A model generated the notes under the pieces. It saw only the letters and a list, made by a program, of their open reading frames with translations, had not been told where the DNA came from and did no database searches. A DNA stretch of 35,334 nt from a virus (lineage: Duplodnaviria; Heunggongvirae; Uroviricota; Caudoviricetes): IMG/VR virus record IMGVR_UViG_2713896776_000008; one strand, given 5' to 3'. Both the position numbers and the translations under genes were made by a program. Positions 1,370 through 9,636 of the stretch are shown one piece after another. Position 1 is the stretch's first letter. Every line of letters begins with the position of its first letter.

Positions 1370-1586
1370 AATGAATCCCACCCCAGTTAATATGAATGTT
1401 ACGGGCTGTAGTAACCGGATCGTTATTCCACCATGCACCTGACATGTAATTTTTAACCTGCTCTCGTCCAGCAATAATGCCAATTTGAATGCCGGGCCTT
1501 ACGTTCTTAAAAAAGGCGCGAGCAAAAAGATATTTAGCAGCTGTACGACAAGGGTTCGGTGCTTTCTTCTTACGCGATAACATCAT
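1359..1586 (-). CDS. hypothetical small basic protein (75 aa)
   Basis: ORF with tandem ATG at 1586; overlaps stop of upstream DUF2786-like gene by 4 nt (translational coupling); no recognisable domain. Confidence 0.4.
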   Translation of the reverse strand: MMLSRKKKAPNPCRTAAKYLFARAFFKNVRPGIQIGIIAGREQVKNYMSGAWWNNDPVTTARNIHINWGGIHYDG

Positions 1587-2272
1587 CTTTCAGCCCTCAG
1601 TTTATGCTGCTCCTGCCCGCCAACGGGCTGATGCAGGCGGACGTTTTCCCCTTCTCTGTAACCGATGTGGCGGGACATGTCTGCGTCACGTGACTTCCCG
1701 GCCCCACGGCCCGTAGTTGTGCCTGAGTCAGGGTATTTTTGTTCAAGCCAGAGGCTTGCCAGCTCCCGTTCTTCGCGGGACATAGCAAATAAATGAACCT
1801 CGCTGCGCACGGCCAGAACCCAGCCTTCGGCAAACTTGTCACCACGACTGGTCTTGGTCGTGTTTTTGATTCTTTTATTCTGCTGTCGAATATAGTTTTT
1901 ACGGGCCACGATTAATTGTCTGGCCAGTACCTCCCATGTATATGAGGCCAGTTCAACCCGGTCTTTATTACCGTAAAAACCAACGCTGGGTTTAAAGCCG
2001 GAGTGAATAATAGACTTAACGCCAAATGCCACCTGGATAATATCCAGCAGACCCAGCATGTATCGCGGTGGGTTAACGCTACCTGCTGCCCAGTAGTGAC
2101 TGACGCTTTCATCAATATCGCTGAGTGCGAGGTCAGCCTGGGTGATGTTATAGGCCTGCATCAGCTTCTGGGCGCGTTGTAGGGCCAGTGCAGCTTCATG
2201 GGGGTTGTCAGATTTAGCCAGCGCCAGCAGCTTTTTTAACTTCTCCAGCAGCTTTTCATTATTCTGCGGCAT
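1583..2272 (-). CDS. DUF2786-like domain protein (common early-region protein of Mu-like prophages)
   Basis: N-terminal LLEKLKKLLALAKSDNPHEAALALQRAQKLM motif characteristic of DUF2786; ATG at 2272. Confidence 0.6.
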   Translation of the reverse strand: MPQNNEKLLEKLKKLLALAKSDNPHEAALALQRAQKLMQAYNITQADLALSDIDESVSHYWAAGSVNPPRYMLGLLDIIQVAFGVKSIIHSGFKPSVGFYGNKDRVELASYTWEVLARQLIVARKNYIRQQNKRIKNTTKTSRGDKFAEGWVLAVRSEVHLFAMSREERELASLWLEQKYPDSGTTTGRGAGKSRDADMSRHIGYREGENVRLHQPVGGQEQHKLRAER

Positions 2273-2741
2273 AAGTCACCCCCAGGCGTTCGGCAAGGCG
2301 TTCCAGCTTTTTCTGCTTATGAAAATCAATCATCAGGCCCATCCCGTTGAGGCGGAACTGTTCAATCATGATTTCAACGTCAGCCAGTTCGCCAGCCAGA
2401 TCAACTTCACTGCCCAGTCCGTTCATGTTGCGGGCGGCAGCAGCGGCCAGCTCGGCGGCTTCTTCCATCAGCTTCAGCGCCTGTGCTTCAGGGCCAAAGG
2501 TTTTCAGGGCCAGATTGTATATAGTGGAGCGGTTATATAATTTCATGCCTTTCATTTTTTTTGCCTCGCAGGGGATGAACTCCATGGCCGGAACTTCGGT
2601 GTAGTAATGCTGGCTGCAGTGAGGGCATACCAGCGTGATGAGGACGGCTGGCACACGGTACTTACCGGAGGTAATGACGCTGGCGTCGCTGAACTTCAGG
2701 GTGGTGATACCTTTCTGGCAGTTGGTACATTTGATGGACAT
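2259..2741 (-). CDS. Zn-ribbon (CxxC...CxxC) fused to MazG-like all-alpha NTP pyrophosphohydrolase domain
   Basis: ATG at 2741 with AAGGAA upstream; N-term CTNCQ...CPHCSQ; C-term EEAAELAAAA...AGELADVEIMIEQ acidic motifs resembling MazG/HisE-type metal-binding helices. Confidence 0.55.
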   Translation of the reverse strand: MSIKCTNCQKGITTLKFSDASVITSGKYRVPAVLITLVCPHCSQHYYTEVPAMEFIPCEAKKMKGMKLYNRSTIYNLALKTFGPEAQALKLMEEAAELAAAAARNMNGLGSEVDLAGELADVEIMIEQFRLNGMGLMIDFHKQKKLERLAERLGVTYAAE

Positions 2742-2819
2742 GTTTTATTCCTTAATGCTGTTTTCGGCGTGCAGAAACCCACAGCGCTGACGCCGAAATA
2801 AAAAGAAATTGAATTAAAA

Positions 2820-3431
2820 TTAAATGGCAGCGATATCTAACGGGATATTAATTAGCTTCCCGTGTTTATCTTTCTCCCGGAAATTAATATAGGTTTTGGA
2901 CATTGCCACTTGCAGTGATTCCGATATAGCCTCCATTGCCCGGTTCCAGCGCTCGTCCTGAATCTTGACGCGGCGCAGGGAAAGAATACGTCCGGTATTA
3001 AGCTGGCCCTCTTTGTCCACCTGAAAAGCATCGCTGATGATGGCCCGCAGGTTGGCGTTCGCGCCTTCCGACCACTCGGTGACGCACTCGTCTATCAGGT
3101 CTTTGGCAATCTGCAGCTCTGGCCCGAAGGTCAGGGTTTCCTGCACGCGGATGGTGATCTGCTGAGCACCGTCGAAGCTGCTGAAGGTCACGTTGCCTTT
3201 GGCACCGCCGCGTGTTCTGCCGTACTTCTCGGCCACAAGGTCAAGCCAGGCATAGCACTCGTCAAAGGCACGACGCTTGAAGTCGCTGAGTTCATCGCGT
3301 TTAACCTTCGCGGCGGCAACCTGTTCTTTAACGAAAGAGTCCATCGCAAGGTCATAGTCAGACACCTGGTCAACCGGCACCAGACGCCCCTTGCGGTCTT
3401 TCATGTAGTTTTCTTTATTTACTTCGCTCAT
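2820..3431 (-). CDS. DUF3164-like protein (Mu-like early-region protein), 203 aa
   Basis: ATG at 3431 with AAGGTGA upstream; size, position after B and family resemblance; function unknown. Confidence 0.55.
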   Translation of the reverse strand: MSEVNKENYMKDRKGRLVPVDQVSDYDLAMDSFVKEQVAAAKVKRDELSDFKRRAFDECYAWLDLVAEKYGRTRGGAKGNVTFSSFDGAQQITIRVQETLTFGPELQIAKDLIDECVTEWSEGANANLRAIISDAFQVDKEGQLNTGRILSLRRVKIQDERWNRAMEAISESLQVAMSKTYINFREKDKHGKLINIPLDIAAI

Positions 3432-3720: not shown

Positions 3721-4887
3721 TTAAACTCCTTTGACGACGTCGGCGTTGACCTGCGGAACCCCGATTTCAGCAGCCAGATTCATGGCGGCTATCACCAGGT
3801 TACTGACGGCCAGCGGATACAGCAGGCTGACCATGCTTTTACGGTTGCTGCCCAGATTGCTCAGACGGGCGCGGATGGCTTCCACTGCGCTGGCGTCCAT
3901 GATGTCAGACAGCTGCTTACCGGCGCGTTGCAGTTTGAACGTCAGAAACTCTTCGAGGCTGTTGTCCAGCGGCAGCAGTTCAACCACCTCGCAGCGCTGG
4001 ACGACCTCACGGACTTCCATGTTGCGTTCGGACAGTTTGTCCGCCAGCTCAGGCTGGCCAATCAGCACGATGGACAGCAGTTTTTTGAAGCCGGATTCCA
4101 GCTCAAAGAAGCGTTTGAGGTGCTTCAGCGTCGGAATGGGCAGACTGTGGGCCTCCTCAATCACCAGAACGTGGCTGAAACCCGCCTGACTGCTGTCCTT
4201 CAGGACGCGGTGCAACTGGCGGAAACGGGCGTCCTGGCTGCGTTTGATACTCTCCAGCGGCGCGATGGTGCTGATGATGGCCTCGGCGATAGCTGCCGCC
4301 TTCAGGGTTTTGCCCTTCACGTCGTTGTCTTCCATGGCGATGATGTATGGCTCGATAACAATCACCGGCGCGTTCTCGCGGTTGACGCGTTCAATCAGGT
4401 CGCGGCGCAGCGTGGATTTACCCGCACCGGACTCGCCGATAACCGCCAGAAAGCCACCGTGGCGGGCGGTCTGGAACAGCGCCTCACGCACGTAGCGGAT
4501 ATCCGGCGTGGTGAACACATCGTCCGCGCCCTGCATGGCTTCATCGGCGAACGGGTCACGGAAAAGACCAAACGCTTTTTTGGTTGCTGGAAATAACACC
4601 TGCTTTTTGAGTAACATGTTCTCTTCCTCACTGAGGTTGGTTTTATCGGTAGTACCCGCTGTACGGGGTGTGACAGCGCCCTGTGCAGCATCAAAACTTT
4701 TCGCTGTATCAATCCCCTTACTTTCCAGATACAACGCCAGACGCTGGCGTACCTCTTCGGGGCTGGTGCGGGGCCACTCGTTATGGTTCACAATCTGGGC
4801 CAGCGTGGCCTCGGAAACGGCGACGGCTCTTGCCACCGCCGCCTGCGGGATGCGGGCCTCTTTCAGTTGTTGCTTCAGTACCAGCAT
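3721..4887 (-). CDS. DNA transposition protein B-like AAA+ ATPase (target DNA activator)
   Basis: Walker A AVIGESGAGKST, N-terminal HTH-like segment, Walker B-like hVLVIEEAH; GGAGG RBS; directly downstream of transposase as in Mu A-B. Confidence 0.85.
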   Translation of the reverse strand: MLVLKQQLKEARIPQAAVARAVAVSEATLAQIVNHNEWPRTSPEEVRQRLALYLESKGIDTAKSFDAAQGAVTPRTAGTTDKTNLSEEENMLLKKQVLFPATKKAFGLFRDPFADEAMQGADDVFTTPDIRYVREALFQTARHGGFLAVIGESGAGKSTLRRDLIERVNRENAPVIVIEPYIIAMEDNDVKGKTLKAAAIAEAIISTIAPLESIKRSQDARFRQLHRVLKDSSQAGFSHVLVIEEAHSLPIPTLKHLKRFFELESGFKKLLSIVLIGQPELADKLSERNMEVREVVQRCEVVELLPLDNSLEEFLTFKLQRAGKQLSDIMDASAVEAIRARLSNLGSNRKSMVSLLYPLAVSNLVIAAMNLAAEIGVPQVNADVVKGV

Positions 4888-4897
4888 GCCTTCCTCC

Positions 4898-6667
4898 TCA
4901 GTTACCGTTAACGATGCTGATAACGCTGTTGCGGGCCGGAGTGGTCAGGGTGACCATGACCTCATCCAGAGCGGCTTCCGGTACGCCGTCCGGGTACTGT
5001 GCCGTTAACTGGCGGTAATGTTCCGGCGTCCAGATATGGCCGTTAGCGCCAAACTTCTCGCGCAGGGCTTTCGCCGCCTCCACATGGGTCAGCGGACGCT
5101 GCTCAATACGCGGCCCGCGCACGTCTGAAGCCTGACCGCGCTTCGGCATATAGGCCGGAAGCGTGGTGTCGTCGATATGTTTGTACGGGTCAAGTCGCCC
5201 GCCGAACGGCAGCGCCTTCGCCTTGCGTGCAGCAGCTGCATCGGTGGCGTTATCGGTGCCCGTAACCAGCTCTTCGATTTCTTTTGCCGCCGTCTGCGCC
5301 GGGGTCTCCGGCAGGGCTTTGTAGTTTTCGCCAAATACCGCCGCGCTTTCGGCAAAGCCGAACTCGTTCTTTCTGACCTCCTCGACCAGGAAGAACGTCT
5401 CGTGACCGTCCTCACCGGTCAGCACCACCTGCGCCACATCGCTGCGCCACGGGTTACGGGTAATCATCAGTTTTTCGCCGACCAGTACGCCCGGTACCGT
5501 CGAAACGTCAAACTCATTGCCCCGGAACGAGACGCGCAGTTTTGGTGTGACCTTACGGAGTTCCGGTGCGGCCACCGCCAGTTCGCGGCAAACCTCAACG
5601 GATGGCGCTTTTTTCAGCTGGTCAGCAGTAATCTTCAGCCAGATATCCGTGCGGGTTTTACCGTGGCGGCTGTGGACCGCCGTGGCGTTAAAGTGGCTGC
5701 GCCATTTCACCGCCAGTGCGTTCAGTTCGTCCAGGCTATGAACCGGCTGGAATTTGAGACCCGGCTCCAGTTTACGTTCGATAATGTCACGGGCCTTTTC
5801 CACCTGCCCGGTGGCGCGGGCGTTATGCGGCTTGTGCGCTATCAGATTGATGCCCAGCGAGCGGCACATGTTTTTCGTCATGCCAGCGGTGTTCGCCGAA
5901 CCGGGATCAAGGTAGAGTATTTTCGGCACGCCGTGCAGCACGTCCGCGCCGCCGCGCTCCTGCATGGCGTTGATAAGCACAGAACAGAGGTTCTCACCAG
6001 ATTCCGCACCCATCACGTACTCAACGTAAATCCAGCCGCTGGTATGGTCGGTAATCTCGTAACTCCACACGCGGTCACTGGCGATGCGGGCGATGTTGGC
6101 AGGCTTGTTCTTGTAGAACTTCGAGCTGTCCATCACCTGCAACCCTTTATGGCCGTTGCTCAGGTAGTAAAGCGTACAAAGTGAGGCATCAATCTCCCAG
6201 ACGTGATTGGGATGCAGGCTGGCCATCTCGGACGACGGGGCCGGTGCGTCAAGCTGTTCCGGGTGCAGACCATAGTTCCGCAGGGCGCGGCTGATGGTGT
6301 CCTCGGACAGCGGGAAAAACTCGCCTGTGGCCTCGTCCGTTCTGCCAGCAGTGATAAAGCCGTTTGACCGCAGGGTCTCCACCGCATCCGCGATGGAATA
6401 CAGGCGTTTACCGTTCTTACGGGTGGCCTCGCGCAGCGTGGCGGAGATCAGCGCGGCCTCGTCGCGGCTCAGGGCGCTGCGCCCGGCATCGGCGCGTTTT
6501 TTGCGTTTGTCAGTCACTGATACCTCCTTCAGCTTGCGCAGCAGGGTGGCGCGGGACATGCCCAGTTCAGCGCAGGCGGCGTCGTATATCGCACCGCGCT
6601 TACCATGCCCCGCGTCACGTGCCGCGCGGGCAACATAAACCAGTCGTTCAGTCAGGGCGGCACTCAT
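4898..6667 (-). CDS. Mu-type DDE transposase (A protein), 589 aa
   Basis: N-terminal HTH (GMSRATLLRKLKEV), central DDE/rve-like core (HVWEIDAS ... YLDPGSANT ...), GGAGG RBS, followed by B. Confidence 0.85.
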   Translation of the reverse strand: MSAALTERLVYVARAARDAGHGKRGAIYDAACAELGMSRATLLRKLKEVSVTDKRKKRADAGRSALSRDEAALISATLREATRKNGKRLYSIADAVETLRSNGFITAGRTDEATGEFFPLSEDTISRALRNYGLHPEQLDAPAPSSEMASLHPNHVWEIDASLCTLYYLSNGHKGLQVMDSSKFYKNKPANIARIASDRVWSYEITDHTSGWIYVEYVMGAESGENLCSVLINAMQERGGADVLHGVPKILYLDPGSANTAGMTKNMCRSLGINLIAHKPHNARATGQVEKARDIIERKLEPGLKFQPVHSLDELNALAVKWRSHFNATAVHSRHGKTRTDIWLKITADQLKKAPSVEVCRELAVAAPELRKVTPKLRVSFRGNEFDVSTVPGVLVGEKLMITRNPWRSDVAQVVLTGEDGHETFFLVEEVRKNEFGFAESAAVFGENYKALPETPAQTAAKEIEELVTGTDNATDAAAARKAKALPFGGRLDPYKHIDDTTLPAYMPKRGQASDVRGPRIEQRPLTHVEAAKALREKFGANGHIWTPEHYRQLTAQYPDGVPEAALDEVMVTLTTPARNSVISIVNGN

Positions 6668-8697: not shown

Positions 8698-9636
8698 ATG
8701 CGTAAGATGTTTTTGGTCTTAGCTCTGTCATTGCTGGTCGGTTGTGATAGTGGATCAGATGGTGTATCGGATTCTCCTTCTACTCCGTCCGTAGAATTCA
8801 ATGTAAAAACGGACGATTTGACTGTAAACAAGCTGTTGCCTGCTATCAAAAATCTACTGCCAGGGTTAAATCGGTACGCAGATCAGTTCGAAAATATTCA
8901 CGTTGAGCAAAATCATTGGCTCACTATCGTGTTTCATGTTCCCGAAAATGCAAACATACCCGCAGATTATCTCTCTCAGGGGAATAATTGCTTCATCGAG
9001 ATCAATAAAGAAGGTACAGCTATAAAAGTGCCTAAAAGAGCCTGTAAATCCGTTGCCCTAGATAGAGTTGTGCAGGATTTAGATAGCGACTATTGGTTCT
9101 ATTTCAATGCCGACGAATTAACCTATGTGCCGTATGATTTTGCAAAGTTAAACGACAAACAACGTGTAGATATTGGTGTCGCATATCTAAAAAAAATGTG
9201 GGATATCGTGCAGATGGTTAAGCAAAAAACAGACTGGCAACCAGATGATTTTCCTAACTACGCCAGATTGTTCAGGCAACTGGAGAGTGAGGGTAAGCAG
9301 TTTGTAATGGAGGGGGATATGTTCCCAGCTTATGGCTCTTGCAGGATGGCGGGGGCTAACGCTCAGCAATGGTGGTCTACACAAATTAGCTCACTTAAAG
9401 ATTTATCTTCAAATGACCCTCAACGAGCGGGTTCCGCTTTAAAACAAATTAAACGTCAATATGACTCATATCATGAAAGCGCTGTGAGTTGTGCAAAAGA
9501 AATCAGGCAAGCTCCACCAGTAGAGAAAAAAATGGAGGTGTTACCCCCTACGTCAGACAATAAACCTCCAAGAGCGGGCTGTCTGATGATATTTACACCT
9601 GATGACAAGACTAGCTGGAGCTGCCCGATAAACTGA
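8698..9636 (+). CDS. lipoprotein (312 aa), lipobox LLVGC with Asp at +2, AT-rich cargo gene
   Basis: MRKMFLVLALSLLVGC|DSG signal peptide and lipobox; AAGGA RBS; local GC visibly lower than flanking phage genes; several Cys pairs in mature part. Confidence 0.7.
   Translation: MRKMFLVLALSLLVGCDSGSDGVSDSPSTPSVEFNVKTDDLTVNKLLPAIKNLLPGLNRYADQFENIHVEQNHWLTIVFHVPENANIPADYLSQGNNCFIEINKEGTAIKVPKRACKSVALDRVVQDLDSDYWFYFNADELTYVPYDFAKLNDKQRVDIGVAYLKKMWDIVQMVKQKTDWQPDDFPNYARLFRQLESEGKQFVMEGDMFPAYGSCRMAGANAQQWWSTQISSLKDLSSNDPQRAGSALKQIKRQYDSYHESAVSCAKEIRQAPPVEKKMEVLPPTSDNKPPRAGCLMIFTPDDKTSWSCPIN

Follow-up and report, generated by a model that had tools for sequence, protein, structure and literature searches.

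The closest described relatives of the enzyme considered here are the small MazG-type nucleoside triphosphate pyrophosphohydrolases (NTP-PPases), among them Sulfolobus SSO3215 (PDB 1vmg), integron iMazG (2q5z), Bacillus-conserved MazG (5ie9), B. subtilis YpjD (2gta), and human DCTPP1 (7mu5). The same catalytic superfamily includes E. coli MazG (3cra/3crc), a stringent-response regulator with a tandem two-domain layout of about 260 amino acids (aa), and the MazG of cyanophages. Cyanophage MazG, the one phage MazG so tested, hydrolyzes deoxynucleoside triphosphates (dNTPs) with a preference for dGTP and dCTP, and neither bound nor hydrolyzed (p)ppGpp (PMC6850273). Here, we analyze a 160-aa open reading frame (ORF) of the tailed-phage record IMGVR_UViG_2713896776_000008 (35,334 nucleotides (nt); the whole stretch is henceforth termed the window), in which a predicted zinc ribbon is followed without interruption by a MazG-like domain. 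A preliminary description, made from the sequence alone, had presented this ORF as a fusion architecture. Comparison with relatives leads us to a different reading, to which we assign a probability of roughly 80%: two independent neighboring early genes have been joined by a frameshift in a homopolymer, which yields a rare allele rather than a new architecture.

The ORF is ATG-initiated and uninterrupted, occupies positions 2259-2741 of the minus strand, and is preceded by a Shine-Dalgarno (SD)-like AAGGA, read from the sequence at 2749-2753 (minus strand), 7 nt 5' of the ATG at 2739-2741. The SD sequence claimed in the preliminary description, which named no strand, is thus present. Profile searches against PHROG assigned aa 1-62 to phrog_3401, a family of unknown function (positions 1-62 of 64, E 9.7e-31), and aa 48-158 to phrog_2245, a nucleoside triphosphate pyrophosphohydrolase family (positions 99-210 of 218, E 9.3e-32). 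Each half therefore has highly significant homologues, well beyond chance, while Pfam and NCBIfam returned only sub-threshold PRA-PH/HisE matches for the ORF. Both proteins are already catalogued in RefSeq as separate entries, the first as a hypothetical protein of 62 aa and the second as a protein of 98 aa that recent annotation calls a "nucleoside triphosphate pyrophosphohydrolase family protein". The ORF and its parts are as follows:

2259-2741, minus strand: 160-aa ribbon/MazG read-through ORF, A8 allele; exact protein on 12 public contigs
2556-2741, minus strand: zinc-ribbon part, aa 1-62, with C5xxC8, C39xxC42 and C58; stand-alone at 61-70 aa in relatives; phrog_3401, RefSeq WP_020803515.1
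2259-2555, minus strand: predicted MazG-like all-alpha NTP pyrophosphohydrolase part, aa 63-160 plus stop; stand-alone at 98 aa in relatives; phrog_2245, RefSeq WP_032438819.1
2555-2562, minus strand: A8 homopolymer (T8 on the plus strand) at the gene junction, from alignment and from run-length counts at 12 loci and 7 more
2564-2567, minus strand: internal SD-like GAGG, which serves the 98-aa gene as ribosome-binding site and lies 8 nt 5' of the M63 ATG (7 nt in A7 relatives)

The origin of the continuous frame is apparent from an alignment with the two closest phage records. At the junction, Klebsiella phage KP12 differs from the window by one base. KP12 reads ...TGC GAG GCA AAA AAA TGA, the next ATG overlaps the stop (ATGA), and two coding sequences of 62 and 98 aa are annotated. 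Its run of seven adenines (A7) provides both lysine codons at the end of the ribbon gene as well as the first base of the enzyme gene's ATG. The window carries A8 on the minus strand, one A more. This extra A removes the TGA stop and thereby brings both genes into one frame; the 160-aa frame is continuous because of a single additional A in a homopolymer. Only two 8-nt A/T runs occur in the window, one of which is the junction run; the sole other 8-nt A run lies at 9189-9196 (plus strand), inside a 312-aa ORF at 8698-9636. In a Yersinia locus, the junction reads GCG AAA CAA TGA with the ATGA overlap kept, and in Phi06_2974B the ribbon gene ends in GCA AAG AAA TGA and is followed by an extra 90-aa gene (phrog_3691) and then by the MazG-like gene.

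The split state prevails throughout the relatives that we inspected. All 24 complete E. coli genomes carrying the locus have two separate genes, which are adjacent in 10 genomes and separated by the 90-aa gene in the other 14. At the adjacent E. coli loci, the match length is 482 nt in nine cases and 480 nt in one, compared with 483 nt in the window, and A7 was read directly in six of them as well as in phage KP12. A pattern scan allowing runs of A6 to A10 found A7 at 7/7 further loci, four from IMG/VR and three from GTDB genomes, in Intestinirhabdus, Mixta, and Pseudocitrobacter. The two genes also part company altogether: in Escherichia phage PhiKM, no ribbon gene lies beside the 90-aa gene and the MazG-like gene, a Morganella locus carries Gam, then the ribbon gene, then the 90-aa ORF, and a widespread variant has a 70-aa ribbon, a 67-aa ORF, and a 163-aa PF04447 dATP/dGTP pyrophosphohydrolase that replaces the 98-aa enzyme. 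Since the genes are split, separated, or replaced in relatives, ribbon and enzyme are independent and their fusion is not a conserved architecture. The preliminary description was therefore right about the MazG-like assignment, discussed below, and mistaken about the fusion as an architecture.

We next consider how real and how frequent the A8 allele is. The exact 160-aa protein was found on 12 public contigs, whereas the exact 62-aa and 98-aa split proteins each occur on at least 1000, which places the fusion allele on about 1% of contigs. A8 was confirmed in all five loci inspected among those 12, two from NCBI assemblies and three from Logan run assemblies. The host genes at the phage end differ among these five loci (pyruvate:ferredoxin oxidoreductase, LptF/G, VF530 protein), which therefore represent different insertions of a transposable phage, and pairwise comparison of the loci over 5.7 kb gives up to about 36 differing positions. 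The presence of A8 at different insertions and on different single-nucleotide polymorphism (SNP) backgrounds argues against a one-off miscall, and we conclude that A8 is a real, heritable, rare allele. Near-identical A7 counterparts exist: L008 (A8) and E. coli GON1437/L020 (A7) show two differences in 5.7 kb, indel included, and L010 (A8) and E. coli C31 (A7) show five, compared with ten between L008 and L010. More broadly, when L008, L009, L010, and L011 (A8) are set against L004, L020, L021, and L022 (A7), A8 at locus position ~3181 falls on several SNP backgrounds, each near-identical to an A7 genome. Such a distribution would arise if the homopolymer slipped repeatedly, or if A8 originated once and then recombined, and both fit the data.

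Two further database entries that appear fused, P0001 and P0002, were rejected as instances of the same allele. Their junctions read …EFILRGKT-MKGM… and …ELILRGNK-MKGM…, as opposed to …EFIPCEAKK-MKGM… in the window, which implies indels other than the window's, close to the A-run on its 5' side. For P0002, back-translation suggests a 2-nt deletion in a CCCC run, and a further frameshift affects the C-terminus of this entry. Both look like noise or decay.

Three other explanations of the joined frame were weighed. The two forms differ by one base within an 8-nt homopolymer, and the split form is found in every complete E. coli genome with the locus and in every annotated phage record, as would be expected if the true run were A7, the extra A a homopolymer miscall in sequencing or assembly, and no fused ORF present in the organism; the differing indels of P0001 and P0002, and the second frameshift of P0002, which is typical of noisy sequence, point the same way. 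We nevertheless consider an artifact very unlikely, because an identical A8 and an identical product recur on the 12 contigs in at least five independent samples, with differing flanks and SNP backgrounds. Even harder to sustain is the reading of the ORF as an evolved two-domain protein, as in the preliminary description, with a functional architecture in which the zinc ribbon would target or regulate the MazG-like part of the same polypeptide. The continuous ORF and its good SD are in line with it, the persistence of the allele at several insertion sites is compatible with a viable phage, and sporadic Cys-rich N-terminal extensions do occur in the remote family members P0133, P0128, and P0312. 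Yet these extensions share no sequence relationship with phrog_3401, members of the ribbon family otherwise always stand alone, no relative conserves the fusion, and the linker has zero length, with the junction lying exactly on the former stop/start overlap. With relatives split and no linker, this architecture was rejected, and it is the least credible of the readings weighed here.

Programmed recoding deserves closer attention, since an A7 or A8 run at a boundary between two ORFs, where fusion requires a -1 shift or one added A, resembles known A-run recoding sites such as the A_AAA_AAG of dnaX. Runs of eight to nine A allow transcriptional slippage in some bacteria, as described for A8/A9 runs of insertion-sequence elements (PMC1088944). 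The A7 form in KP12 and E. coli reads GC A_AAA_AAA TGA in the 0-frame, a canonical X_XXY_YYZ heptamer before a stop, and a -1 shift at this heptamer would yield exactly the 160-aa protein of the window; the occurrence of A8 on several backgrounds close to A7 genomes is also compatible with recurrent toggling. By -1 ribosomal frameshifting, transcriptional slippage, or a phase-variable A7/A8 contingency switch, both the separate proteins and the fusion would then be made. Unlike the known sites, however, this run lacks conservation: it is absent from the Yersinia junction, the ribbon C-termini vary across the family (KK, KQ, TQ, TK, EK), and in Phi06-type loci the run is broken and another gene comes next. 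No stable RNA structure was found downstream of the run (over 75 nt, predicted folding is no stronger than in shuffled controls, z = +0.24), and the SD-like GAGG lies only 1 nt from the heptamer, whereas the SD spacing that stimulates -1 shifts is about 10-14 nt. Partner genes that are separable in relatives and an allele restricted to about 1% of contigs likewise speak against a programmed event. Given the unconserved run and the lack of downstream structure, a programmed frameshift was rejected as the main explanation, and recoding in any of its forms appears very unlikely to us; equally improbable is a phage lineage that makes, or toggles between, the separate proteins and an NTP pyrophosphohydrolase tethered to a zinc ribbon and differing in activity or target.

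Joining of two independent genes by a homopolymer frameshift suggests the following course of events. Normally, the ribbon and enzyme genes would be translationally coupled through the ATGA stop/start overlap. Replication slippage in the homopolymer would have converted A7 to A8, and the A8 frame encodes a 160-aa ribbon-MazG polypeptide, which would replace the free 62-aa ribbon protein. As the internal GAGG and ATG are retained, free 98-aa enzyme is probably still made by internal initiation. The allele may be tolerated for this reason, and because the ribbon joins the enzyme at its N-terminus, where many family members carry extensions.

The C-terminal part of the ORF is predicted to be a divergent single-domain enzyme of the all-alpha MazG/HisE NTP-pyrophosphohydrolase superfamily. 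Its EEAAEL (aa 93-98) and ELADVEIMIE (aa 118-127) segments contain the metal-motif residues E32xxE35 and E56xxD59 in the numbering of the 98-aa protein (E94, E97, E118, and D121 in the 160-aa ORF). In alignments of 69 and 93 family sequences, every member has E31, and at least 90% have each of E32, E35, and E56; D59 shows no exception among the 93 sequences and is nearly invariant among the 69, and Q66, K83, and R86 are also invariant or nearly so. Structure prediction was run for each part of the ORF separately, as a combined MAFFT alignment misaligned the two unrelated families. The AlphaFold2 model of the 98-aa part, built from the 93-sequence alignment, has four helices with a predicted local distance difference test score (pLDDT) of 95 and a predicted template-modeling score (pTM) of 0.81; helix 2 bears EExxE and helix 3 bears ExxD. 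The preliminary description had proposed structure prediction and Foldseek as a check on its MazG-like domain; the all-alpha fold agrees with that assignment, and the best Foldseek matches were DCTPP1, Bacillus-conserved MazG, and iMazG, though at weak E-values of 0.2-0.5. Together with the phrog_2245 match and the conserved EExxE...ExxD residues, this confident model supports a MazG-like domain.

The divergence of this enzyme is evident from conventional searches. It missed the gathering threshold of PRA-PH (PF01503; 18-19 bits versus 21.3) as well as that of Pfam MazG (PF03819), and among 93 family members six match PRA-PH and four match MazG at E<=0.01. Single-sequence phmmer gave no matches in the PDB, and a PDB profile search gave weak MazG matches only (5ie9, E 0.06). 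With 16-26% identity to the small MazG-type NTP-PPases named above, the 98-aa enzyme belongs to a separate, very large, mostly phage and metagenomic family, of which we know of no assayed member. A profile search yielded more than 7000 clusters at 90% identity, and an exhaustive HMMER search of a separate library collected 1430 representatives at 50% identity (E<=0.001); most members are stand-alone proteins of ~90-110 aa on phage-like or metagenomic contigs. The tandem two-domain layout of E. coli MazG is not found in the 98-aa protein. HisE/phosphoribosyl-ATP pyrophosphohydrolases (PF01503; 3c90, 1yvw) differ from it in that the window gene lies in a phage early region without histidine-biosynthesis neighbors and scores below their cut-offs.

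Additions to the enzyme domain are not unusual in this family. Remote members often have 60-125 additional aa at the N-terminus, and three proteins of 169 aa (P0023, P0025, and P0026, in clusters of 20-35 members) are relatives of the 98-aa enzyme with a ~70-aa C-terminal extension (…LIKKLPRRELLEDWCGAVP…). Sporadic Cys-rich segments unrelated to phrog_3401 occur in the remote members P0133, P0128, P0312, and P0055. In P0133, CAEC…CTEC precedes the enzyme domain, and in P0055, CPAC…CQQC follows it; zinc-binding appendages on the enzyme domain therefore arise elsewhere.

The 62-aa N-terminal part is a predicted zinc ribbon consisting of two CxxC knuckles on a beta scaffold, in keeping with the CxxC...CxxC ribbon noticed in the preliminary description. 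C5, C8, C42, and C58 are invariant in the ribbon family alignment and C39 is nearly so, and the AlphaFold2 model contains three beta strands (pLDDT 88.7). The family consists of 14 clusters, all from Enterobacterales, 12 of which are 61-70 aa long; the other two are apparently truncated, one being a 41-aa fragment and the other a 68-aa entry that aligns with 63% of the query. An enzyme domain was found in none of the 14 ribbon clusters.

The 160-aa ORF is an early-region gene of a Mu-like transposable prophage, as anticipated by the early-operon placement in the preliminary description. The minus-strand order is DDE transposase, MuB-like ATPase, an 89-aa ORF, DUF3164, the 160-aa ORF, DUF2786, two small ORFs, GemA, Mor, and a Gp27-like gene. 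The annotated neighbors are:

4898-6667, minus strand: DDE transposase
3721-4887, minus strand: MuB/ExeA-like AAA ATPase
2820-3431, minus strand: DUF3164 family protein (phrog_846), upstream neighbor and left border of the variable slot
1583-2272, minus strand: DUF2786 protein (phrog_421), downstream neighbor and right border of the slot, with a 14-nt overlap with the 3' end of the 160-aa ORF

In related Mu-like prophages, the slot between DUF3164 and DUF2786 is a variable cassette (window 1583-3431, minus strand; L002 2501-3270; L003 2378-2956; L024 1501-2401; L025 1171-1628). Four layouts were observed: ribbon and 98-aa MazG-like gene; ribbon, 90-aa phrog_3691 ORF, and 98-aa MazG-like gene; 90-aa ORF and 98-aa MazG-like gene; and 70-aa ribbon, 67-aa ORF, and 163-aa PF04447 gene. 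In PhiKM (L003 2378-2956), the 90-aa and 98-aa ORFs lie in the same frame, parted by a TGA and two codons (…SRKH*GRGMTRN…). One slot position thus holds two different NTP-PPase families. The PF04447 protein of L024, likewise named NTP pyrophosphohydrolase, shares with the 98-aa enzyme its location downstream of a homologous ribbon gene, and differs in its length of 163 aa, its Pfam family, and the 67-aa ORF that lies between ribbon and enzyme genes. A further relative, NZ_CP132021.1 (L006), is deposited as 'plasmid unnamed' of E. coli JCH8249 (40,540 bp, circular). With 25 kb as query, it matches the Mu-like phage at 99% coverage and 95.7% identity. It shares its matches with the chromosomal prophage of GON1437, a strain from the same hospital, and may be an assembled phage form and not a plasmid.

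By analogy with characterized relatives, the enzyme would most likely be oligomeric, bind Mg2+ through E32, E35, E56, and D59, and convert (d)NTPs to (d)NMPs and pyrophosphate during early phage development. A role in dNTP-pool control or house-cleaning appears more likely on the same grounds than (p)ppGpp hydrolysis. The idea that the protein acts on (p)ppGpp or on defense signals, raised in the preliminary description, gains no support: cyanophage MazG is inactive on (p)ppGpp (PMC6850273), the same slot can hold a dATP/dGTP enzyme, and PADLOC returned no matches for the ribbon part, the enzyme part, or the fusion, which leaves a defense or anti-defense label without support. A literature search on MazG in Mu-like phages or as an anti-defense factor gave nothing specific to the family of the 98-aa enzyme. 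As either the PF04447 dATP/dGTP enzyme or the 98-aa enzyme occupies the slot, dNTP-directed pyrophosphohydrolase activity may be what the early region keeps.

In themselves, two catalogued neighboring genes joined in a rare allele are little biological news. The lesson is a practical one: where a single sequence presents a novel domain fusion, relatives should be compared for a homopolymer indel at an overlapping stop and start. The locus also raises the questions of which role a MazG-type enzyme plays in the early region of a transposable phage and which role falls to the enterobacterial 62-aa zinc-ribbon protein.
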